The notes under the pieces: generated by a model | Database searches by the model: none | What the model was told of the DNA's origin: nothing | What the model saw: only the letters and a program-made list of their open reading frames with translations | Made by a program: the position numbers and the translations under genes | Source: Candidatus Omnitrophota bacterium | GTDB lineage: Bacteria > Omnitrophota > Gorgyraeia > Zapsychrales > Fredricksoniimonadaceae | Reading direction: 5' to 3' | Assembly: GCA_015233675.1 (NCBI GenBank) | Contig: JADFXH010000008.1 | Location: 26,003 to 90,002, forward strand | DNA: 64,000 nucleotides | Shown here: piece by piece, positions 5,408-62,770 of the stretch | Numbering within the stretch: position 1 is the stretch's first letter | Layout of the letters: each line of letters starts with the position of its first letter

Positions 5408-6529
5408 TTAAAGTCCCGTTCCTTTGAATAATTTAATTATTTTATCAATCAAGCCGATTCGTTCAAAATCTGAATAAAATACAAATAAAGCTAGCATAAT
5501 GATCAAAGCAAATCCAGCCTTAGCAATAAATTGATCGGCCTTCACGGATAAAGCTCTGCCACGTAATTTCTCCAGGCAAATCAAAAATAAATGCCCGCCG
5601 TCCAATGGCATCACAGGCAATAAATTAAAAATAGCCAAAGAAGCGCTGAGAATTCCCACAATATGCAAGAGAAAAGAAAACCCTATGGTCAAAGCGAACT
5701 TAATCACAAAAAACATGCCTATAATACCCATCGCTTCTTTGGGAGAACGAGCTCCTATCGCCATTTCATAAAGCGCCTCATAGGTTTTGACACTGATGTT
5801 CCGTAATTCTTCGCCTGCTTTAACGAAAGATTCCAAAAATCCATAACGCATAACTATAACATCTTTAGTATTATTAATGGGTATTGGTCCCACACCGATA
5901 CGCCGTACTTTATGGAGCCGGCCAAATATATCCTGATTATCTGTTTCTTGCGCTGTAATCCCTATGGTGATGTCATGGTTTGCCCGCTCAATGGTTAGGG
6001 TCAAGCGATTTGAGGTGGAATTGGAAACCAAATCCTGCAACTGGGACCAATGATCAATAGCAAATCCATTGATCTTCAATATTCTGTCTCCCAGTTTCAA
6101 CCCTGCTTCTTGTGCCGGTGAGTGCTCTAATACCTGACCGACAACAGGAGAAACTCTCTGAGAAGAAAGATCTATATCCACATAACCGATCATAAACATA
6201 ATCCAAAAACATGCATAAGCCAAAATTAAATTTACTACAGGCCCCATTAAAATTATCAAAGCTCTTTGTCCCGCAGGTTTAGAAAAATATTCATCGCGTG
6301 AGCCTGAGCATTTTTCACGCTCATCACCGGCCATTTTAACAAAACCGCCTAAGGGAACGGCACATAAACAAAATTGACAACCATCATGCTCCCAACCTAA
6401 TAATTTTGGTCCAAAACCCAGGGCAAACTGCTCAATTTTAACTCCACATTTTTTTGCAATAATGAAATGGCCCCATTCATGCACTAAAATCAAAAGGCTC
6501 AATATAAAAATAAAAACAATTAATGACAT
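5408..6529 (-). CDS. rseP: RIP metalloprotease RseP (site-2 protease)
   Basis: 373 aa. HEWGHF (HExxH) sits in the first TM helix, with a central PDZ-like segment and a LLPVMPLDGGH motif. Follows dxr as in many bacteria. Confidence 0.88.
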   Translation of the reverse strand: MSLIVFIFILSLLILVHEWGHFIIAKKCGVKIEQFALGFGPKLLGWEHDGCQFCLCAVPLGGFVKMAGDEREKCSGSRDEYFSKPAGQRALIILMGPVVNLILAYACFWIMFMIGYVDIDLSSQRVSPVVGQVLEHSPAQEAGLKLGDRILKINGFAIDHWSQLQDLVSNSTSNRLTLTIERANHDITIGITAQETDNQDIFGRLHKVRRIGVGPIPINNTKDVIVMRYGFLESFVKAGEELRNISVKTYEALYEMAIGARSPKEAMGIIGMFFVIKFALTIGFSFLLHIVGILSASLAIFNLLPVMPLDGGHLFLICLEKLRGRALSVKADQFIAKAGFALIIMLALFVFYSDFERIGLIDKIIKLFKGTGL

Positions 6530-9868: not shown

Positions 9869-10507
9869 TTAATTGCCGTTGCCTTGATCAACCGCGGCAT
9901 CAGCATTCTTCATTTCAGTCTTAGGAAGAATAACAATTTCAACACGGCGATTTTTCTGACGGCCTTCCTTCGTTTCATTAGAAGCGACCGGTTTATATTC
10001 ACCGTAACCTATTGCCGCTAGACGAGGCTCAGCAACGCTTTTATCACTTAAATAATGCAAGACCGATAAAGCGCGAGCAGTAGACAATTCCCAGTTGGAT
10101 TTCCAGCCAGATCTCTTGATCGGCTGGTTATCCGTATGCCCTTCAATTCCAACATTTAAATCAGAAACTGTCGTATTGAGCACATTAGCTACTTTACTTA
10201 ATTTCGGATAGGAATCCTTGCGCAATTTAGCTTTCCCTGAATCAAATAATACTTCTGATACGAAAGTAATAACTAAACCCTTATCCTGCATTTCTACCTT
10301 CACCTGCTTATTATTAATCTCATCTTGAAGGCGTTTTTCTAACTCATTCTTAGCCCTCTCTAATTCGCTCATATCATTCTTTAATTTAGATATTTTTTCA
10401 ATATCGGTACGACGCCCCTTTTGAAGGATAACCGTACAACCAGAAAGCCCCAGAGCAAGCACCAGGACTAAAGAAATATTCATAAAAATTACTTTATTTG
10501 AACGCAT
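9869..10507 (-). CDS. OmpA/MotB-domain lipoprotein (peptidoglycan-associated)
   Basis: 212 aa. Lipobox is LGLSGC, with a coiled-coil linker. C-terminal OmpA-like domain: GHTDNQPI, NWELSTARALSV, NRRVEIVILP. Confidence 0.82.
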   Translation of the reverse strand: MRSNKVIFMNISLVLVLALGLSGCTVILQKGRRTDIEKISKLKNDMSELERAKNELEKRLQDEINNKQVKVEMQDKGLVITFVSEVLFDSGKAKLRKDSYPKLSKVANVLNTTVSDLNVGIEGHTDNQPIKRSGWKSNWELSTARALSVLHYLSDKSVAEPRLAAIGYGEYKPVASNETKEGRQKNRRVEIVILPKTEMKNADAAVDQGNGN

Positions 10508-53217: not shown

Positions 53218-54309
53218 TTATTTTTTACTCATACCTTTAAGAAAATCATACAGTTGCGCGGAAACTTTCGTCGATTCATATTCTTGGGAATACCGTAAAC
53301 CTTTGGCAATCATCTCCTTCTTTAATCTATCATTAGTCAGGACTTCTTTAATGGCATTGGCGATAGCCGAAGGATTCATGGGATCGACTAATAACCCTGC
53401 ATCTTTAACAACTTCAGGAATGGATGTCGTATTCGAAGCCACCACCGGTACCCCGCAAGCCATTGCTTCCAGGGGCGGCAGCCCAAAGCCTTCATATAAA
53501 GTAGGCATGACAAAGACTTCCGCACCGCTGTATAAAAATTGCGGATGATCAGCTTCTGTAATTTTTCCCAAAAAAATAACCCTCTCTTGCAATCCATTCT
53601 TTTGAGCAATCCCCAGCAATTCTTTATAAGTATGCCCCTTAGGGCCTGCTAAAACTAAGTTTAAATCAGGGAATGAATTCGCTATTAAGGCGAACGATTC
53701 AACAATGCTTTTGACATTTTTATGTATTTTAAAATTGCCCACATAAAGGACATACCGGCCTTTAACCGGTGGAGTCCCTAGTTCCCGTCGGTATATATTA
53801 CCGACACTCAAAGGGATAACTTTGATCTTTTGTTCTTGAACACCATAAATACATTGAATATCCCTCTTGGAATATTCTGAACAAGTTAATATCTTGTCCG
53901 CTATGTCCGTGTAAAGTTTGCCAAAAACAGCATAATAAGCTTTACTTAAAGGAGACATTTTTTTGTAATACGGTTCAAATGACAGATACATTAGATCTAA
54001 AATAGAACTTACCATCGGGCATGGTTTCATTAAGGGGACCTTGTAATAAGGCGAATAGAAAAGATCAACCTCCTCTTGCTTCAAGGCCTGCGGCAATTGC
54101 CATTGGTCCCAGATAAATGTAATATGCTCACTCAAAACAACATTTTTAATTCTGGGACCGAAATCGATGGGGACTTTACGGGCAGAAAATAAAATGCAGG
54201 CATCCTCATTATTAAGGCCGGAGAAATATTCCAGGAAATTTGCTAAAGGACGGCCGATGCCTGTATAAACTCCATTTTGAATTTCACGCGCATCAATGCC
54301 TAAATGCAT
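53218..54309 (-). CDS. glycosyltransferase family 4 (GT-B)
   Basis: 363 aa. Motif EGFGLPPLEAMACGVPVVASNTTSIPEVV. Confidence 0.85.
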   Translation of the reverse strand: MHLGIDAREIQNGVYTGIGRPLANFLEYFSGLNNEDACILFSARKVPIDFGPRIKNVVLSEHITFIWDQWQLPQALKQEEVDLFYSPYYKVPLMKPCPMVSSILDLMYLSFEPYYKKMSPLSKAYYAVFGKLYTDIADKILTCSEYSKRDIQCIYGVQEQKIKVIPLSVGNIYRRELGTPPVKGRYVLYVGNFKIHKNVKSIVESFALIANSFPDLNLVLAGPKGHTYKELLGIAQKNGLQERVIFLGKITEADHPQFLYSGAEVFVMPTLYEGFGLPPLEAMACGVPVVASNTTSIPEVVKDAGLLVDPMNPSAIANAIKEVLTNDRLKKEMIAKGLRYSQEYESTKVSAQLYDFLKGMSKK

Positions 54310-55037
54310 TATTCTCCTCTGGTTAAACGTAATGCCAAAGTTTCAGGCAGATTAGTATCCAGAATCTTCTGTTGGGCCTTATTGATATCATATAAAACCC
54401 TGTGATTTTCTATCATCCGCAATGCCGTATCATATATACAAAAGCCGGCCAAAGGATTTCCATCCCGAGGCTGACCAACACTGCCTAGATTAACGATATA
54501 TTTGTACTTAGCATTGAGCTCTATGTCCAAAATGTCACTCTGGCATATATTCCCCTCACGCTCAATAAATACTTTAGGCACATGTGTATGCCCCACAAAA
54601 CACACTTGCGTATCCATTAACGCAAAAGTATCTGCCGCTTGAGTTTCATTGGTCAAATAAACAAACTGTTGAGGGTTCAAAAGAGTCCCGTGCACCAATG
54701 TGCAATCTTTATTTTTTAATGATAAGGGCAAATTATTCAGATAAAATATATCTTCAATAGCCAAATGTGAACGCGTCCAAACCACCGCGGCCTGCCCATC
54801 CGGCGTAAAGTAAGAAAAATCAAGTTTTCCGGATACTGCCCAGTCATGATTGCCGGCAACAGCGACTGCTTTAAGTTTACGGACAAGTCCTAAACATTCT
54901 TTAGGATCGGCGCCATAACCGGCAATATCACCGCAACACAACAATGAATCTACATTTAGCTTCCTGCATTCACCAAGCACTGCTTTTAAAGCTTCTAAAT
55001 TTCCATGTATATCCGAAACAACACCATAACGCATCAA
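54309..55037 (-). CDS. metallophosphoesterase (YfcE/calcineurin-like)
   Basis: 242 aa. Motifs VVSDIHGN, CCGDIAGYG, GNHD and VGHTH. Confidence 0.85.
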   Translation of the reverse strand: MMRYGVVSDIHGNLEALKAVLGECRKLNVDSLLCCGDIAGYGADPKECLGLVRKLKAVAVAGNHDWAVSGKLDFSYFTPDGQAAVVWTRSHLAIEDIFYLNNLPLSLKNKDCTLVHGTLLNPQQFVYLTNETQAADTFALMDTQVCFVGHTHVPKVFIEREGNICQSDILDIELNAKYKYIVNLGSVGQPRDGNPLAGFCIYDTALRMIENHRVLYDINKAQQKILDTNLPETLALRLTRGE

Positions 55038-55052
55038 CGCTCCTTGATAAGT

Positions 55053-55904
55053 CTAATCAAAAGTATAACGTTTGCATTTCCCTAATTTCTTAATCAATCC
55101 ATGATAAAGCCCAAACAAAATGGCGCCTATCTTGGGGAATATATGCGGACGTTCAAATAAAATAATAGCTATTATGACCCTTAACGCATAAAAGAAAAGC
55201 TTAATGGCCTTGATAAAACACCTATATTCAATAAAAATGAAAAGTTCATTCCTAAAAGCATAGTACAACCTAAAGGGCTCTGTATAATAATTTAGCTTCC
55301 TTCCAAACAAGTATGTTCTTTTTTGTCCCCCTAAACGAGGGTTGGAACATTTGCTTGAATTAATCCAATAAAATGAATATCCATTCTTTGAAAATCGTAA
55401 AGAATATTCCAAATCATCGCCATAAATAAATAATTCCTTCCTGGGAAACCCTACTTGTTTGATCGCCTTTACGTCAAATAACGTGTTTCTCCAAGAAATA
55501 ACATCAACCTCCGTGGGGGGAAGCAGGGATTCCTGTCCGACTGACCTGACAGCGGAGATTTTCACTTTCTGGTTTAAGAATTCAAGTCCTTTCTGCAATT
55601 CTTCAATGGTATTTTCACTCAACCGCACGTCATCATCAAGAGTCAGGACGTAATTACAACTGCCATAAACCGCTTCCTTCAATCCTAAAAAATACCCCCC
55701 CGCCGACCCGGTATTCTCTGACAAACGAATATAGCTCAACTCAGGATACTTGGCCCTAACAACCTTTTGTGTTGCGTCTTTACTGGCGTTATCGACAATA
55801 ATAATTTTTTCCGGTCTTCTTGTCTGCCGGTACAAATCCGATAAAAGTTCCTCAAGCATGTTAATGTTATTGTAGGTCACTATAACAACAGATATTGTTT
55901 TCAA
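55053..55904 (-). CDS. glycosyltransferase family 2
   Basis: 283 aa. Motifs ISVVIVTYNN, IIVDNASKD and LTLDDD. TTG start. Confidence 0.85.
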   Translation of the reverse strand: MKTISVVIVTYNNINMLEELLSDLYRQTRRPEKIIIVDNASKDATQKVVRAKYPELSYIRLSENTGSAGGYFLGLKEAVYGSCNYVLTLDDDVRLSENTIEELQKGLEFLNQKVKISAVRSVGQESLLPPTEVDVISWRNTLFDVKAIKQVGFPRKELFIYGDDLEYSLRFSKNGYSFYWINSSKCSNPRLGGQKRTYLFGRKLNYYTEPFRLYYAFRNELFIFIEYRCFIKAIKLFFYALRVIIAIILFERPHIFPKIGAILFGLYHGLIKKLGKCKRYTFD

Positions 55905-55970
55905 AATTACGGCTCTTTCTTGTTAAGAAATATTTCTCTATGCTCTCTTGAATTTTAAAATGGAACGCAT

Positions 55971-56147
55971 GGTCATGAGCAAGGAATTATTACCTTCCAC
56001 ACATTCAGGAATTTTTCGCCAAATGTCTGCGAGGCTTTACGACAAAAATGTTCCAAATGAAGAGAATCTTTAGAACATTTTTGTCGTAAACCGAAGCAGA
56101 CGGCGAAAATATTCCGTGTGGAAGGTAATAATTCCTTGCTCATGACC
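55971..56147. repeat. long-hairpin element, copy A (177 nt)
   Basis: A perfect 32-bp outer stem pairs 55971-56002 with 56116-56147. Next come the ATTCA bulge and GGAA/TTCC. The core (56012-56111) has stems TTTTCGCC/GGCGAAAA, GTCTGC/GCAGAC, an 18-bp stem TTTACGACAAAAATGTTC/GAACATTTTTGTCGTAAA and a 19-nt loop. Confidence 0.9.
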
Positions 56148-56188
56148 TCCGCCGCAATAATACTGATAATCTTTTTCTTTCTTGAATA

Positions 56189-57301
56189 TTAGGCTTCCAT
56201 GGATTCTTCATAGAGATCTTCGATTTTGTTAACCATTATTTTAGCTTCAAATCGCTCTTCAAATGTCTGTTTTCCCGCCAATGCCAGATGATGGCATCTC
56301 TCCGGATTACAGATAAGCCCATCAATGCAGTCTGCTAATCTTTGAGGATCATGGGGAGGCACCAAGCACCCGTTTTTACCATCCTCAATAACTTCCGGGA
56401 TACCGCCGACTGAGCTGGCTACGACCGCCACCCCATAGGCCATCGCTTCTAAAATACTGACCGGCAGACCCTCCCTAAGAAGGGAAGGTAAAACAAACAA
56501 ATGAGAGGCCGAGAGAATTTCCGGAATATCCCGGCGCACACCTAAAAAGGTTGTATGCTTCTCAATACCTAATTCCTTTGCATGTTCCTTTAACTGGGCC
56601 TCCATTTCCCCTTCCCCCACAACCCAGCATTTAATATGAGGATGTTTATCTTTAAGGGAAGAAATTGCCTCTAATAAAACACCATGTCCTTTATTAGCAA
56701 GTAAACTGGCTACGACCGTTATTACAAAATCATTGCCAACACGGGGAACAGTCTGGATATTTCGGCGAGAAATGCCATTGTAAATGACAACGGCTTTGGC
56801 AGGATCTATCCGTTCATGATCAATGACAAATTCTTGGACACTTTGTGAGACACAAATAATTTTATAGGTAAAGAAACTTAATATACGTTCTATAATCAGG
56901 TTCAATTGGGAATAGTGCCAATAAGAACTATGCACGTGATTGACACAAATTTTAATGCCGGCAATCTTTGCAGCTAAACGCCCTATGGTGGAAGCAAAAT
57001 ACACATGGGAATGGATAATATCAGGTTTGGCCAGTTTAAAAAGTTGAGCTAATTTTAGGATATTAAACGGATTATGATAGGTAGAAATGTTCAAAATACG
57101 CACAGGGATTCCTTTTTGGCGGATTTCTTCCGCCATAGGCCCCCCGCGATGCAGGCACCAGACTTCTACATCACATTTATCTTTATTTAAGCCGCAAACG
57201 ATCTCCTTGGTCACCGTCTCAAGGCCGCCGCCTAAATCCCACCACTCTAATAAATGCAAAACCTTATATTTAGATTTAGTCCCTGTCACAAGATCTTTCA
57301 T
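56189..57301 (-). CDS. glycosyltransferase family 4
   Basis: 370 aa. Motifs LEWWDLGGGLE and EGLPVSILEAMAYGVAVVASSVGGIPEVI. Flanked on both sides by the hairpin elements. Confidence 0.85.
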   Translation of the reverse strand: MKDLVTGTKSKYKVLHLLEWWDLGGGLETVTKEIVCGLNKDKCDVEVWCLHRGGPMAEEIRQKGIPVRILNISTYHNPFNILKLAQLFKLAKPDIIHSHVYFASTIGRLAAKIAGIKICVNHVHSSYWHYSQLNLIIERILSFFTYKIICVSQSVQEFVIDHERIDPAKAVVIYNGISRRNIQTVPRVGNDFVITVVASLLANKGHGVLLEAISSLKDKHPHIKCWVVGEGEMEAQLKEHAKELGIEKHTTFLGVRRDIPEILSASHLFVLPSLLREGLPVSILEAMAYGVAVVASSVGGIPEVIEDGKNGCLVPPHDPQRLADCIDGLICNPERCHHLALAGKQTFEERFEAKIMVNKIEDLYEESMEA

Positions 57302-57349
57302 AAGAACTTTCTGTACTTGCGCATTTACTAAATGACTTTAATTCACGCG

Positions 57350-57524
57350 CTATGATGGACAGCTATTGTATATTCGGAACATTAAGGGATTTTTCGCCAA
57401 AAGTCTGCGAGGATTTACGACAAAATTTTTCCAAATGAAGAGAATCTTTAGAACATTTTTGTTGTAAACCGAAACAGACGGCAAAAATATCCCGTTCCGA
57501 ATATACAATAGCTGTCCATCATAG
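57350..57524. repeat. long-hairpin element, copy B (175 nt)
   Basis: A perfect 31-bp outer stem pairs 57350-57380 with 57494-57524 and is unrelated in sequence to copy A. Next come the ATTAA bulge and GGGAT/ATCCC. The core (57391-57488) is ~93% identical to the copy A core, in the same orientation. Confidence 0.9.
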
Positions 57525-57606
57525 ACGCATGTATATATAATTCTTATTGGTAATCTCATTTAACTGCCCAATTGCTACGAAAGGCCAAAACTTTTCTAAA
57601 AAATAT

Positions 57607-58602
57607 TTAAAACATAGAAAGGATCTGTTTTATCCGATCCTGATACCTGTGATGAAGGATCACTTCCTGATAACCATTAAACGCAATGCGTTTTCGTTCC
57701 TCATCATGAGTTAAATAATATTTTATATTTTCGCGCAAATCATCTTCATTATCAAAAGCCACCAGATGTTGTTTGTTTTTAAAGAGCTTATCCACATCTT
57801 TCTGCTGATCAGTCAATACAAAACATCCACAGGCCATGGCTTCAAATATTTTAGGGCTGATCTGATGACAAGGCACCTTGCCGTCTTGATAGTGGACAAC
57901 AATACAAATCTTTGACGCATTGAAAATCTTGACCCATTGATTATAATTCATCTTAATATCAACCGTCTTTGTCTTAAGCCTGGAGTCCGAAGATAATTTT
58001 TTCCAATAAGGCCCCCAGATGCCTATATTAAAATCTGCAATAGCTTCCAAGGTCCTGGCCCGGTTAGGATAATAAGACCCGACAAAGGCAATGTCTCTTG
58101 TGTATTTTTCCCTATCTTTGCGGTAAACATCCATTGGTTTATGATAATTAGGATCGCAGGCAAACGGGAGCCAGCTGGCATGACTCGCCCCCTTAGCATG
58201 AAAAATATCTAACGCCTCAGTCCCGGCGCAAAACAGTTTGTCATAGAATAAGGCCGAGGCCAGGACATTCTCAAAATCAATTGGCACATCAGTAGTCCAA
58301 AGAGCCGTTGGAATCCCCATATTCTTAATGGCCGACACGGTTTGAGGAAGCACTCTGTGTCCTCCGACAACAATGCAGACATCCGGATGCTTGAGCCTTG
58401 CACATTTAATAATCTCCCGATTAAGCCGTTGAAGATCCCATTCTTGCAAATAAACCACTGCCTCCCTTACTCTTCCCGGTAAAAGAAAGCCCCTGTCATC
58501 AAAAGAGATCAACTGATGGCCTAAATACTCCACAGCTTTGTCACGATAAACCATTGAATTGGTAAAATTCGGGTTATGGTAACCCACTAACATAACCTTC
58601 AT
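57607..58602 (-). CDS. CgeB-like glycosyltransferase (DUF3880 / Glyco_trans_1_2-like)
   Basis: MKVMLVGYHNP from the ATG at 58602, which overlaps the upstream stop (ATGA). Motif ISPKIFEAMACGCFVLTD. The family assignment is from memory and moderate. Confidence 0.55.
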   Translation of the reverse strand: MKVMLVGYHNPNFTNSMVYRDKAVEYLGHQLISFDDRGFLLPGRVREAVVYLQEWDLQRLNREIIKCARLKHPDVCIVVGGHRVLPQTVSAIKNMGIPTALWTTDVPIDFENVLASALFYDKLFCAGTEALDIFHAKGASHASWLPFACDPNYHKPMDVYRKDREKYTRDIAFVGSYYPNRARTLEAIADFNIGIWGPYWKKLSSDSRLKTKTVDIKMNYNQWVKIFNASKICIVVHYQDGKVPCHQISPKIFEAMACGCFVLTDQQKDVDKLFKNKQHLVAFDNEDDLRENIKYYLTHDEERKRIAFNGYQEVILHHRYQDRIKQILSMF

Positions 58603-59645
58603 GACATTGTCCTTTTCACTGCGCCTAAAGCCTTGCCCAAACGGTAATCCCACGACGTTTTGTAAATCTTAAAGGAAAAATTTTCTCTCATATAGTTGGC
58701 AAAATCCATTTTAAAGGGCTCTTTCCCGATGGTAAAATCAACCTCACGGATCCCTTGAGAAAGGACATACTCCAATATTTCTTTAATAAGCACCATACCT
58801 GGTGAATGGCTTGCATGAGTAATTTCAAAAGATGGCTTGTACCAAAGGAAGATTTTATAATTGATAAATCCAAAATGAAATGCAATCGCTTGTCCCCCGG
58901 ATTTAATCACACTGAAAATGATTTGTTTGTGCGGGCACAAACGTGTTAAAAGATTCTTATAAAATTCCCTGTTGGTTTGGTTTAAAAAAAGGCTGGGGCT
59001 TGCAGTCCGCCCTCGGCGCCTGATATGCTGTTCAAAAAACTCATTAAGGCATGGTAATATTTCTTCTTCCCGGGTCAAATGAAGGACTTCATAACCTTCT
59101 TTTTTAAAAAAATAATTATAACGTCTTTTAAGAATCTTTTTTTGGAGAATTTCTGATATATTCTTACCGTCAGAATCAACCAATAATACAGGACAAACGA
59201 TCCGTGAATAGGCATACGGGTACAACTGATGTAAAGAAAAAGCGGAAGAAAGCTGAACAACTGTAGGACTTTTTTGCGGTATATAATCAAGAACTGCTTG
59301 ATCCCATCTGTCTTTATTAATAACTAAAAAATCCAGCATCTTAGCCAAAATTTCAGGACGGTCATCAAAATATATAAAATCACAGTAATCACTGTTGCCG
59401 GAACCAATGAATTTTAATACCCTTCGCCTGCCTTTGAACGATAAGAATAAGGGCGCCACACCACACAGTTTTCCATTTTCCTCGATACAAATAAGGAATA
59501 ATTTTTTATTCTCAGAAAACGTCTCCCACCAGGCCTGATGCCAGCCGAAGGATTGGAAAACGCTCCGTGTTGGGCTTAAAGCGGCCAACTGGTCCCATTG
59601 CCGCCCATCAAGATCATTGATATTGTCCGCCAAAAAGGTCCGCAT
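58599..59645 (-). CDS. GNAT/FemAB-like acyltransferase (BioF2-like / CelD-like family)
   Basis: The first ATG is at 59645 (MRTFLADNIN); the track start at 59672 is a TTG. The N-terminal FQSFGWHQAWWETF and C-terminal SPGMVLIKEILEYV resemble the CelD/BioF2-like GNAT family. Confidence 0.55.
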   Translation of the reverse strand: MRTFLADNINDLDGRQWDQLAALSPTRSVFQSFGWHQAWWETFSENKKLFLICIEENGKLCGVAPLFLSFKGRRRVLKFIGSGNSDYCDFIYFDDRPEILAKMLDFLVINKDRWDQAVLDYIPQKSPTVVQLSSAFSLHQLYPYAYSRIVCPVLLVDSDGKNISEILQKKILKRRYNYFFKKEGYEVLHLTREEEILPCLNEFFEQHIRRRGRTASPSLFLNQTNREFYKNLLTRLCPHKQIIFSVIKSGGQAIAFHFGFINYKIFLWYKPSFEITHASHSPGMVLIKEILEYVLSQGIREVDFTIGKEPFKMDFANYMRENFSFKIYKTSWDYRLGKALGAVKRTMS

Positions 59646-60642
59646 TCTTGATCTTTCGTAAAAAACGTCCAAGGCTTGAAAGCGTACAGATAAAACCTGT
59701 CAAGTCACCGTCATTATGTAAATTAAGGCGCTTTAATTCAAAAATATCTGAATACGCATTGTTCGTGCCGATAATAGTCGTCAACGCGCATTTATATCCC
59801 GAATCTTTCAATATTCTTTTAGATAATTCATTGAAATCACCTGTTGCACCGTTGGGATAACTAAATATAGCGCAGGCTTTCTCCGTCAATTCTTCAATAT
59901 ATTTCTTTGAATCCAGCAGTTGGTCCTTCATCATGTCCTGCAGGCATGCGCTCAAAACCACATGTGAACACGTATGGCTGCCGACAGACACCAAATTACT
60001 ACGGACCATTTCCATAACGTCTTTTCTTTCCAGAGGGGCGTACATGGCTGGCGGGTTTGGGCCCTGTAATTTCTGCTTAAGCTTATTTTCAATATCTTCT
60101 ATGACTGCATCTCTTGGGACCACCGGTAATTTTCTTAATTTTGATTTAATATCCCTGTCCGTTAACTGTTTTTGTCTAAAATCACTCAAATTGTAAGAAT
60201 AAACATTATTATCTAAAACGATTTCGAGATATTTTTCGGCGGTTCCGTTCAGGGCAAATTCAATACGATCGGTCCAGAGATACTCTTTTTTATCAATGAA
60301 ATTTGTGGTCAAAAAAATGGTGGCAGGCACGGCAAATTCTTTTAGCACCGGATAGGCCAAGGTAAAATTTGACCTGTAGCCGTCATCCATCGTAATAACG
60401 ACTAAGCTCGACGGAACAGGCTTAGGATCAACAAGACAACTGATAAATTCTTCCAACTTAATGATATGATAATATTTCTTTAAATAACGGACCTGTTCTT
60501 TAAATTTATCAATATGAAGATGTTTCCCATGATAATTCTCAATCCCCTTAAAACTCTTCTCATCGGTAAACCCGTGATACATCAAAATATTGATGTTTGA
60601 TAGAGATTCAAGCTTCCGCAAAAATGAATGTAACAATTTCAT
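59614..60642 (-). CDS. polysaccharide deacetylase (NodB homology domain)
   Basis: 342 aa. Motifs ITMDDGYRSNFTLAYPVLKEFAVPATIFLTT and SHTCSH. Confidence 0.82.
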   Translation of the reverse strand: MKLLHSFLRKLESLSNINILMYHGFTDEKSFKGIENYHGKHLHIDKFKEQVRYLKKYYHIIKLEEFISCLVDPKPVPSSLVVITMDDGYRSNFTLAYPVLKEFAVPATIFLTTNFIDKKEYLWTDRIEFALNGTAEKYLEIVLDNNVYSYNLSDFRQKQLTDRDIKSKLRKLPVVPRDAVIEDIENKLKQKLQGPNPPAMYAPLERKDVMEMVRSNLVSVGSHTCSHVVLSACLQDMMKDQLLDSKKYIEELTEKACAIFSYPNGATGDFNELSKRILKDSGYKCALTTIIGTNNAYSDIFELKRLNLHNDGDLTGFICTLSSLGRFLRKIKNADLFGGQYQ

Positions 60643-61559
60643 TGTTTAATATATCTCTTAAACGACCTGTTATAACTAGAAAATTTAACTAAAGGCAATT
60701 CCAACAAACACCAAGCCGCGATCTTAAAAATTTCTATCTTACGCACAGCAGCGGCTTTCTTAAACCAGTTTATTGCCTCAGCCCAAGTCCCATTAAGACA
60801 ATGCAATTTACCTATTCTTTTTAAGTGAACAATGAGTATTTCAGGATATTCCTGAAATTCTTCCCAATGTTTTTTGACCATTCTTGTGCGACCGGGTATC
60901 AGGGAAGCATAATTTGTGGAAATCTGGTCACCATGCATATTGATCCGTGCCAACACCTCGCTGACATATTCAAACTCATAATACCGCGCGATACAGAGCC
61001 ACATGTCCCAATCCTGACAGCTGGTCAGTTGCTCATCAAAAAGCCCTGCCTTCTCAAAACACTCTTTTTTAACTAAAACACTGCTGACACTGCCTAAAAT
61101 TGTGCCCATTAAAAGCCTTTGATACACATTGCCGCGAAATGCCGGTAGATTCGTTCTCAAAATTTTATTTTTATGCTCATCAAAGACTTCCGTTCCCACA
61201 TATACAAGCCCAACACAAGGCGATGATTCCTGGAATTTCTTGACCTGGAGTTCTAGTTTTCTAGGGAGCCATTCATCGTCATCATCAAGCAAAGCAACCA
61301 GAGAAGCCTGTGCGGTTTTGATCCCCGTATTACGGGCAGCCGGACCTCCTTTATTGGTATCATGCCTGATATAGCGGATACGTTGATCTTCCACGCTCTT
61401 AACAAACTCTGCCGTTCGGTCTTCAGAAGCATTATCAACAATTATAATTTCAATACTCTTAAGGGTTTGCGCAAGGGCACTTTTCAATGCCCGTTCAAGC
61501 TTTTCGCAACGGTTATATGTAGAAATAACAACACTGACAACTGGCAATGGTCCATTCAT
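60639..61559 (-). CDS. glycosyltransferase family 2 with helical C-terminal extension
   Basis: 306 aa. Motifs VSVVISTYNR, IIIVDNASEDRT and LLDDDDEW. ATGA overlaps on both sides. Confidence 0.85.
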   Translation of the reverse strand: MNGPLPVVSVVISTYNRCEKLERALKSALAQTLKSIEIIIVDNASEDRTAEFVKSVEDQRIRYIRHDTNKGGPAARNTGIKTAQASLVALLDDDDEWLPRKLELQVKKFQESSPCVGLVYVGTEVFDEHKNKILRTNLPAFRGNVYQRLLMGTILGSVSSVLVKKECFEKAGLFDEQLTSCQDWDMWLCIARYYEFEYVSEVLARINMHGDQISTNYASLIPGRTRMVKKHWEEFQEYPEILIVHLKRIGKLHCLNGTWAEAINWFKKAAAVRKIEIFKIAAWCLLELPLVKFSSYNRSFKRYIKQ

Positions 61560-62770
61560 GATTTTATCATTTCATTACACAAATTATCCAAACGTTGGTT
61601 TAACTCCTTAATATCATAATTCTCTTGAATATGTTTACGCCCGGCCTGCCCCATCATTCCCCATCGGTCAGGGTTACAAATGAGGTATTCTAATTTATCA
61701 CACATTGCCGTAACATCTCTGGCAGGGACGATAAATCCACTAAGAGTGTCTAACATTACTTGCGAAACACTGCCTACGTTGGTTGCAACCACGGGCAGGC
61801 CTGCCGCCTGAGCTTCCATCAACACCACCGGCAGAGCCTCTGCCACACTTGGTAAAATAAACAAATGCGACCGGGCAAGCAATTGATCCACCCCCTCCTG
61901 GACCTGATAGCCTAAGAAATATATTTTATTCTTAAGCTGGAGCTTTTGCCCGTAGGCTTCAAGTTCTTTTCTCAAAGGACCGTCGCCAAGAATGTAATAT
62001 TCGATATTAGTCAAGCCCTTTTTGAAGACCAGCTGATGAATGGCTTCAATAGCGTAGGAAAACCCTTTTTCTTCAACCAGCCGACCGATAGTTAAAATTT
62101 TAACCGGCATCCCGGCGTCAATGGTCTTAGGTTTAATTGAGGCATAACGTTTTGTATCAATACCAACGGGGTGATAACGGACCCTTTCAACCGGAGCCCC
62201 AAATTCAAGCAGATGTTTATAATTGTAATCAGAAATGCTTAAAATGGCATCCGCCCTTTTGAACAAAAGCTTATAAAGGCCCTGAGTCTCAAGGCCCCGG
62301 CGAATATCATAACCATGGAACATGGTCACAACTTTTCCAGCAATGCCTAATTCTTTCATCAAGGCCGCTAAATTTCCATTATGGCCGTAATGACAAAGGA
62401 TGATGTCCGCCTTATTGACACCAAGAAACAACATGACCTTATAAAGATAATTTAATGAAAAAGCTTCTTTGCCATATTTAAAGAAATTCAACGAATTAAA
62501 AATCGCTTTTGGATTCCGATGGCCATAGGCCAATATCATGAATATAATCCATAAGACACGTTTGAGTTTACTGCTAGGCATCTCATTGTGATAATAAATT
62601 CTCTTTAAAAGTTCGTATTTATGGACATCCTCATGATAATTTTTCTCATACGACCTTCCCGCTGAGAAAATAAATACTTCATGCCCCCCATCAATCATCC
62701 CGGTAATTTGGTTAAGGATGAAAGTTTCAGAAATGCAGGGAAAAGAATCAACCATAAAAATGATGGTCAT
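61556..62770 (-). CDS. glycosyltransferase family 4
   Basis: 404 aa. Motif EALPVVLMEAQAAGLPVVATNVGSVSQVM. Confidence 0.85.
   Translation of the reverse strand: MTIIFMVDSFPCISETFILNQITGMIDGGHEVFIFSAGRSYEKNYHEDVHKYELLKRIYYHNEMPSSKLKRVLWIIFMILAYGHRNPKAIFNSLNFFKYGKEAFSLNYLYKVMLFLGVNKADIILCHYGHNGNLAALMKELGIAGKVVTMFHGYDIRRGLETQGLYKLLFKRADAILSISDYNYKHLLEFGAPVERVRYHPVGIDTKRYASIKPKTIDAGMPVKILTIGRLVEEKGFSYAIEAIHQLVFKKGLTNIEYYILGDGPLRKELEAYGQKLQLKNKIYFLGYQVQEGVDQLLARSHLFILPSVAEALPVVLMEAQAAGLPVVATNVGSVSQVMLDTLSGFIVPARDVTAMCDKLEYLICNPDRWGMMGQAGRKHIQENYDIKELNQRLDNLCNEMIKS

Follow-up and report, generated by a model that had tools for sequence, protein, structure and literature searches.

The locus described here raises the question of what two long hairpins are doing inside a polysaccharide operon. 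The window, by which we mean the whole 64,000-nucleotide stretch analysed (Candidatus Omnitrophota contig JADFXH010000008.1, positions 26,003 to 90,002), contains a glycosyltransferase gene of the GT4 type flanked by two such hairpins, copies A and B. They lie in gaps of 284 and 305 nt in an operon whose other junctions are 1-4-nt overlaps or gaps of less than 20 nt, in agreement with the list of open reading frames (ORFs). An earlier note, made from the sequence alone, had suggested that the pair either delimits a mobile glycosyltransferase cassette or serves as an RNA processing or stability element of the transcript. We find that A and B are two copies of a multi-copy, undescribed, non-coding hairpin repeat family of Candidatus Omnitrophota, and that they do not define a gene cassette. 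The feature is real and statistically overwhelming.

Each copy has a perfect outer stem, of 32 bp in A and 31 bp in B, enclosing 113 nt, as seen in the sequence and by a repeat finder. These stems, the substructures common to the two cores and the shared geometry, all described in the earlier note, were found again in the sequence. The 113-nt cores can be aligned without indels, with 10 differences between them, seven of which fall within the 100-nt core delimited earlier; as a direct repeat, 56001-56117 matches 57379-57495 at 91% identity. Within the cores lie the stems TTTTCGCC/GGCGAAAA and GTCTGC/GCAGAC, an 18-bp inner stem and a 19-nt loop, CAAATGAAGAGAATCTTTA, in which folding predicts an extra 6-bp stem with a 3-nt loop. 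The 5-nt bulges, ATTCA in A and ATTAA in B, are followed by GGAA/TTCC and GGGAT/ATCCC respectively. The core of B is slightly decayed: two of its helices contain C·A mismatches, and the inner stem is mismatched at two positions. No other long hairpin of this type is present in the 64 kb of the window.

Species-representative genomes were searched with an exact 20-mer from the loop, and metagenomes with a degenerate pattern for the right half of the element that excludes the loop. The 20-mer matched 25 genome loci, 24 of which are real copies, full or truncated by a contig end, in metagenome-assembled genomes (MAGs) of Candidatus Omnitrophota (some carrying the label 'Planctomycetales'); the remaining match, inside a coding sequence of Chloroflexia, is due to chance. 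The right-half pattern matched at least 120 metagenome loci, from peat, bog, wetland and enrichment cultures. Together the searches yielded more than 100 distinct copies, and 108 unique copies were analysed. In one MAG (JABDCU = Ga0206995) the copies are spread over at least 11 contigs; most copies are the only one in their locus. Recurrence in more than 100 independent assemblies, some with contigs of more than 1 Mb, rules out a chimeric assembly as the source of the hairpins. The earlier failure to recognise a described family held up as well: an Rfam 15 scan of 55000-58500 at E<=10 returned just miRNA-like hairpins at 18-24 bits, against gathering scores of 45-100; two patterns searched in viral contigs gave 0 matches; BLAST against plasmids and phages gave no match; and no account of repeats like these in Omnitrophota came up in a full-text search of the literature.

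It is the fold that defines the family. When the structure predicted for copy A was applied to the 55 copies of equal length, 96.3% of the 3957 pair cells held standard pairs, and changes on both sides were seen in 44 of the 72 pairs (724 cells). The covariation score was 0.48, as against 0.138 for column shuffles (0 of 500 reached the observed value) and at most 0.097 for slid partners. The outer helix takes full part in this, with 24 of 27 pairs covarying and 95.4% of cells paired. The conserved centre with variable but paired arms, first noticed in A and B, is a property of the family at large.

In the arms G:T mismatches are about five times as frequent as A:C, always on the same strand of the element. 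Arm positions comprise 2956 Watson-Crick pairs, 85 G:T, 16 A:C and 178 other mismatches, most of the last at a few recurrent internal-loop positions. With shared events collapsed, 55 G:T stand against 12 A:C (p=1e-7), and the bias is the same in copies sense to their neighbours (15:2) as in antisense ones (44:5). As a G:T on the displayed strand is a C·A on its complement, it is one particular strand that folds; and as the bias does not depend on the orientation of the copy, folding of host mRNA does not explain it. A mutation bias linked to replication or transcription is an unlikely cause, since it should flip with orientation. The folding strand in the window is the plus strand, which is antisense to the operon and C-rich, with a strongly negative GC skew throughout (-0.08 to -0.20). 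Folded as RNA, the displayed strand has a small stability advantage over the complementary one (mean -2.1 kcal/mol, p=0.024).

The unit, about 175-195 nt long, consists of an outer stem of ~30 bp in which pairing, not sequence, is constrained, a conserved basal core, and an exchangeable paired apical module. In the 108 unique copies the core reads GGRATTTTTNGCC-AAAW-GTCTGC-GAGG on the left and CCGAAGCAGAC-GGCNAAAATATYCC on the right, and its conserved unpaired bases, A[AT]T[CA]A, AAAW, GA opposite GAA, and CAAA, are all on the 5' side of the displayed strand. The apex is far freer: the canonical loop occurs in just 36 of the 105 copies found by the right-half pattern, and there are at least four alternative modules, each with its own paired stem. 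Nor are the outer arms random, for they sort into subfamilies. The arm type of B, AGCTATTRTGT.TTCGGMAC, is the commonest; that of A, GAGCAAGGAATTATTACCTTCCACAC, recurs in four other loci (L092, L123, L075, L026; L numbers denote loci and their contigs); a third is ATATGGTTAAAYGGTGTTGTGGACGAAAC. The arms of A and B do look unrelated to one another, as the earlier note had it, but each is a member of a subfamily found in other copies.

It had further been proposed that the arms arose on insertion, by a mechanism such as the inverted copying of adjacent DNA. In paralogues that are nearly identical but occupy unrelated loci (L007/L020; copy A and L092), similarity extends through the arms and is lost within a few nucleotides of the stem foot, which makes the arms part of the unit rather than copies of the target. 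The G:T intermediates of other copies are, moreover, the signature of stepwise compensatory change; that they are common and strand-biased, and that asymmetric bulges persist, argues against preferring a templated origin to slow compensatory drift. Arms of the usual types are also found joined to a wholly different common core, AATATTCCCTATTTCTTGCTCGGCA...GTGTCCGGYTTGAGGACCGAAAATATYCC (L016 7585-7744, L094 1-260), which implies that arms and cores recombine as modules, and some copies are internally deleted (L011 4468-4560, L055, L102, L104). A separate observation concerns L072 and L121, which have an identical left flank, left arm and core; the right arm of L072 is non-complementary and its right flank different, the result either of recombination between copies or of a chimeric contig.

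The unit varies most at the distal ends of its arms and has no conserved termini. Nor is there a target-site duplication, the longest direct match between 16-nt flanks averaging 3.82 nt compared with 3.75±0.09 when flanks are shuffled between copies. What does recur at the foot is the motif CAYGCG, with 23 instances in left and 10 in right flanks against ~3.6 expected per side, mostly no more than 5 nt from the foot and mostly in forward orientation. The window has seven CAYGCGT sites, as chance predicts, and two of the seven exactly abut A and B (Table 1). Orthologous sites occur both filled and empty (L117 vs L109/L072, L083 vs L068/L137, L024 vs L079, L080 vs L127/L005/L141), with flank identities of 68-78% at best. 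Other orthologous sites hold different arm and apex variants (L057/L065, L043/L067, L037/L042, L075/L091), and the element in L059 is inverted relative to those in L075/L091. Such patterns indicate that elements have repeatedly been inserted, replaced or recombined in the same spacers.

The setting of the copies was examined through their neighbours. Co-directional ORFs flank 71 of the 73 fully flanked copies, which does not amount to a significant preference for intra-operon spacers, co-directional pairs having a base rate of 93% in these loci (P=0.12). Relative to the genes 49 copies are antisense and 22 sense (~69% antisense), and distances to the neighbouring ORFs have medians of 10-54 nt. 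A sample of 140 neighbour proteins matched 238 Pfam families, mostly housekeeping (Hsp70, tRNA synthetases, MurJ, ATP synthase, RF-1 and DnaJ among them; GT2 accounts for three matches only), and no transposase, integrase or other mobility family is among the 25 that were listed. The element is not coding: any single frame is open in at most 12 of 55 copies, no reading frame is conserved, which goes too for the 56- and 69-aa ORFs that run through A and B and for one of 10 codons that begins in the loop. Signals of promoters or terminators do not rise above chance, with no terminator-like sites in 55600-57900; the flanks beyond the foot are variable, and the short G+C-rich stem and T tract that define an intrinsic terminator are not seen. 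BLAST of the arms gave no other match in ~1 Mb of flanks or in the window, which leaves a guide role unsupported. One sense copy, in L117 near 10140-10180, has a Shine-Dalgarno-like AAGGAGG just 5' of its foot and a start codon 10 nt past the other foot, so that folding of the hairpin would join the two; in the empty orthologue, L109, the spacer is 10 nt.

In the window, Pfam confirms the GT4 gene and a glycosyltransferase-rich operon with all its genes on the minus strand, as are nearly all genes examined between 50000 and 64000. An exact-protein look-up of the GT4 product gave no record; in a homologue search it proved identical to a protein (P0001) from an Omnitrophica MAG. The best homologues, at 63-67% identity, stand in the same operon order in three contigs (L146, L147 and that of protein P0004), the polysaccharide operon as a whole (53218-62770) being syntenic with L146 and the P0004 contig. 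Junctions of GT4 in the P0004 contig measure 0-7 nt, too short to house an element. The place of copy B is taken in L146 by a methyltransferase gene, a family copy with different arms and apex lies antisense downstream of GT4 (6134-6319), and the next spacers hold two more copies. Compared with its relatives the window is without one or two methyltransferase genes upstream of GT4 and has an extra GT2 gene, 55053-55904, downstream; A and B sit exactly at these two differences.

Two copies in the same orientation around one gene, with gene content altered at both junctions (methyltransferase gene or genes missing at B, GT2 added by A), might be expected of integron-like recombination sites bounding an exchangeable glycosyltransferase cassette. 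But it is the GT4 gene itself that is conserved and syntenic in the three relatives, in one of them with no element beside it; GT4 is accordingly the stable part, and the elements mark spacers whose neighbour content differs. Most members of the family, besides, are single in their locus and adjoin diverse housekeeping genes, their orientation and position relative to genes are not fixed, inspection of the sequence shows no attC R-box consensus, and integrases are missing from the 25 neighbour families listed. The cassette proposed in the earlier note is already contradicted by these observations, and we hold it to be extremely improbable.

Table 1. Positions of the two hairpin repeats and their parts, counted from the first nucleotide of the window.
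Feature	Position	Strand	Remarks
CATGCGT box (ACGCATG on +)	55965..55971	-	abuts foot of copy A; instance of the CAYGCG motif
Copy A, hairpin repeat	55971..56147	+	177 nt; antisense to surrounding genes; nhmmer E=1.7e-50
Copy A, left outer arm, 32 nt	55971..56002	+	pairs perfectly with 56116-56147
Copy A, core, 113 nt	56003..56115	+	sequence, fold, per-helix covariation
Copy A core, bulge ATTCA	56003-56007	+	
Copy A core, helix GGAATTTTTCGCC with GGCGAAAATATTCC	56008-56020 with 56102-56115	+	
Copy A core, bulge AAAT	56021-56024	+	
Copy A core, helix GTCTGC with GCAGAC	56025-56030 with 56096-56101	+	
Copy A core, internal loop GA / GAA, then GG with CC	GG 56033-56034 with CC 56091-56092	+	
Copy A core, 18-bp inner stem; apical region	56036-56053 with 56073-56090; 56054-56072	+	
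Copy A, right outer arm, 32 nt	56116..56147	+	inverted-repeat partner of left arm
Copy B, hairpin repeat	57350..57524	+	175 nt; orientation as copy A; nhmmer E=2.4e-55
Copy B, left outer arm, 31 nt	57350..57380	+	pairs perfectly with 57494-57524
Copy B, core, 113 nt	57381..57493	+	10 differences from copy A, no indel
Copy B, right outer arm, 31 nt	57494..57524	+	inverted-repeat partner of left arm
CATGCGT box (ACGCATG on +)	57525..57531	-	abuts foot of copy B; instance of the CAYGCG motif

The reading that we prefer, with a probability of about 0.5, is that the family is a non-autonomous, hairpin-dependent repeat that spreads via a strand-specific single-stranded intermediate, in the manner of REPINs, hairpins formed by two inverted REP repeats. 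Copies would spread and turn over within genomes through a single-stranded form of one defined strand, and recognition, probably through the bulged conserved core and the CAYGCG box at the foot, would require that strand to adopt the hairpin form, the enzyme being supplied in trans. Both the intermediate and the nature of the enzyme are inferred; the nearest models would be the RAYT proteins that act with REPINs, or a different single-strand DNA transposase of the HUH type, as in IS200/IS605. Inserted copies would come to lie in short spacers of gene strings, where they would probably be co-transcribed and be tolerated because they fold back on themselves. The two in the window would then merely occupy two spacers of the polysaccharide operon, carried passively.

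Several results weigh against this proposal. A tblastn search with an approximate IS608 TnpA query found no mobilising enzyme, a scan of ~1 Mb of element-flanking DNA for Y1 transposase motifs found nothing, a RAYT (Y1/HUH) gene included, and the 25 Pfam families listed for the 140 neighbour proteins include no transposase, though all three are weak tests; BLAST of the arms likewise revealed no pair 0.5-3 kb apart that might mark an autonomous partner. None of the hallmarks of REP sequences is present, neither a tag (GTAG or CGTC) nor a 20-40-nt unit containing a small palindrome of its own. The wobble-tolerant strand is antisense to the genes in ~69% of copies and C-rich in the window, which would run opposite to the IS608 rule, by which the active strand is that on the lagging-strand template. 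No empty site with near-identical flanks was found, and the spacers have diverged too far for exact boundaries to be fixed. Retention at orthologous sites whose flanks are only ~77-90% identical would also fit a host function, and a templated correction of palindromes could keep the arms perfect with no role in mobility. A bolder version, in which the family stands for a new class of hairpin-dependent mobile element or structured RNA, recognised in the bulged core, with outer stem and apex free as long as they pair, spreading by one strand, and served by an enzyme other than a DDE transposase or a typical RAYT, we put forward tentatively and think doubtful; if it were true, the strand-locked G:T bias, the lack of target duplication and of conserved termini, and the same-site variants would all follow from the mechanism.

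A function in RNA would account for some of the same data. Were the hairpins cis-acting elements of the polycistronic mRNA, as RNase III or RNase E processing sites, stability barriers or folds that keep cistrons functionally close, selection for folding of the message would preserve the stems, and the very strong structural constraint would be explained, as would the position of nearly all fully flanked copies between co-directional ORFs, typically 10-50 nt from stop and start, and the keeping of copies at orthologous junctions of diverged genomes, such as that downstream of GT4 in the window and in L146; ERIC and Correia repeats do affect mRNA stability. But the co-directional context is not above its base rate, both orientations occur, and the G:T bias stays on the element strand in antisense copies, where the mRNA would have C·A mismatches. 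Neighbouring genes, moreover, are functionally unrelated, relatives are without the element at the same junctions, and no terminator-like tail was found. The second suggestion of the earlier note is thus possible as a side effect; as the role of the family, processing or stabilisation of the transcript is poorly supported and seems to us unlikely. The orientation-independent bias would be no obstacle if each copy were an independently transcribed gene for a structured non-coding RNA, made from the wobble-tolerant strand, its bulged core a protein scaffold and its variable stems providing specificity or stability; the conserved unpaired nucleotides, the 44 covarying pairs and the slightly greater stability of the displayed strand as RNA are all in keeping with this. 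Conservation, however, ends at the hairpin foot, with no conserved promoter or terminator found, and a promoter inside the hairpin could not yield the whole of it. The copies are wedged close to coding genes and mostly antisense to them, the arms match nothing else in the flanks or window, and the deleted copies, the chimeric ones and the presence/absence polymorphism are typical features of repeats rather than RNA genes, all of which makes such a gene family quite improbable.

The mirrored arms might also arise at the DNA level with no selection on a folded molecule, through intrastrand template switching or hairpin-templated repair (quasi-palindrome correction) that copies changes in one arm to the other. 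The stems of the window copies are perfect over 31-32 bp while the core of B has decayed, and the orthologues L075 and L091 differ at seven arm positions, every one mirrored in the other arm, as such a process would have it. Against it stand the asymmetric bulges ATTCA, AAAT, CAAA and GA/GAA, which all copies conserve instead of having them 'corrected', and the recurrent internal loops of the arms, GGA/TCC and GTGAG/ATTCG, which persist in many copies; G:T intermediates, too, are common and strand-biased 5:1, a bias that symmetric templated correction does not predict. We judge it improbable as the source of the pairing.

The family clusters with other hairpin repeat families. One of these, ~240 nt long with ends CATTGTAAGGGATAAATTTRTTCTTTTTGC ... 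GCAAAAAGAACAAATTTATCCCTTACAATG (L008 about 7790-7550, minus strand; also L014, L061, L109, L116, L137, L106, L100), often lies directly to the left of the element studied here, separated from it by CAYGCGTCTAGAG. Another, ~170 nt long (...CATTGTGTTTCCTTCTCAGGCACGCTCGC...GAAGGAAACACAATG), is found in left flanks in L018, L098, L064, L136, L139 and L120, and shares CATTGT/ACAATG termini with the ~240-nt family. Right flanks in L083, L084, L044, L088, L079, L097, L111, L134 and L117 hold a short REP-like hairpin, CTGGATTCCCGC-TTTC-GCGGGAATGAC, which often follows the element after CAYGCGTG. In L146 the family copy that lies downstream of the GT4 orthologue adjoins an unrelated perfect hairpin, TTGAAATTTTGAATGGGTAG...CTACCCATTCAAAATTCAA (6330-6460). 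The spacers of these genomes are built as mosaics in which several hairpin repeats combine.

To our knowledge the Omnitrophota have no cultured representatives. The family is among the most strongly covarying of non-coding structures and is easily mistaken for a structured RNA or a cassette boundary. Many contigs end within the element (L004, L006, L019, L029, L036, L038 and others; 24 copies lie at contig ends), and the copies in L019 and L006 look like the two halves of a single one; the repeat evidently breaks short-read assemblies of these MAGs, and its recognition explains their frequent contig breaks. It also supplies a marker for tracing strains and lineages and flags spacers where the gene content of operons changes. 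A strand-locked wobble bias that is independent of host transcription would be a signature, legible from sequence alone, of a single-stranded stage in the life cycle, and for that reason the family offers a tractable case for mobilisation of the REPIN kind outside the Proteobacteria.

Among known systems, the earlier note had set the element apart from classical miniature inverted-repeat transposable elements (MITEs) and from integron attC sites, and the tests of termini, duplication, boxes and orientation agree with it on both. A classical, DDE-derived MITE was rejected on its arm ends, the most variable part of the unit and within an outer helix where nearly all pairs covary, and on the lack of a target-site duplication. 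With attC sites the family has in common that structure counts over sequence, that extrahelical bases lie on one strand, that a single strand folds strand-specifically, and that it lies between co-directional genes; attC sites, however, have R''/R' ends (RYYYAAC / GTTRRRY), a fixed orientation downstream of each cassette and an adjacent integrase, none of which holds here, and RYYYAAC/GTTRRRY boxes are absent from the element sequence. ERIC/IRU and Correia (NEMIS) repeats, the MITE-like imperfect palindromes of enterobacteria and neisseriae, resemble it in being single long hairpins of at least 100-150 nt in transcribed spacers, in either orientation, with size variants due to internal indels and a tendency to cluster with other repeats. 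Correia elements end in conserved 26-bp repeats and duplicate a TA, and ERIC is conserved along its whole length; we know of no conserved centre with covarying 30-bp arms in either, nor of any report of a strand-locked wobble bias. IS200/IS605 elements and PATEs have separate left and right subterminal hairpins, whereas here one hairpin spans the whole unit; their strand-specificity may have its counterpart in the G:T bias, and IS200/IS605-type transposition, like the family, leaves no target duplication.

TIRtrons are RAYT-like genes flanked by long terminal inverted repeats, with families of solo repeats for which an IS200/IS605-type tyrosine transposase, provided in trans, is presumed to be required (Di Nocera et al. 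2013, PMC3733652). The present family is like those solo families in being moderately abundant long inverted repeats, and unlike TIRtrons in that no RAYT-like gene flanked by its arms was found and that its arms covary instead of being conserved. In REPINs compensatory changes across the hairpin are common and a single-strand intermediate is putative (PMC3116915). The resemblance to these is broad: both are intergenic, non-coding and multi-copy, each unit forming one long hairpin in single-stranded nucleic acid, with compensatory changes, no target-site duplication, long persistence at orthologous sites and several families per genome. Yet in a REPIN it is the ends that are conserved, as two inverted 20-40-nt REPs bearing a GTAG or CGTC tag, around a variable paired spacer, and the length is ~70-110 nt, whereas the Omnitrophota unit, of ~180 nt, conserves its centre and varies in its outer 30 bp. 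Each half of the core is an inverted copy of the other, yet neither has the conserved internal palindrome of a REP; a variable position in TTTTNGCC covaries with its distal partner (pair 43/132); no GTAG tag is present, and CGTC occurs in some left flanks only, within a CAYGCGTC box. On this comparison the features of the family in combination, hairpin-dependent, strand-specific and multi-copy, free of duplications and conserved termini, and subject to presence/absence and turnover, come closest to REPIN-type elements; what distinguishes the family from REPINs and from long-terminal-inverted-repeat families alike is its conserved, bulged centre between covarying 30-bp arms.

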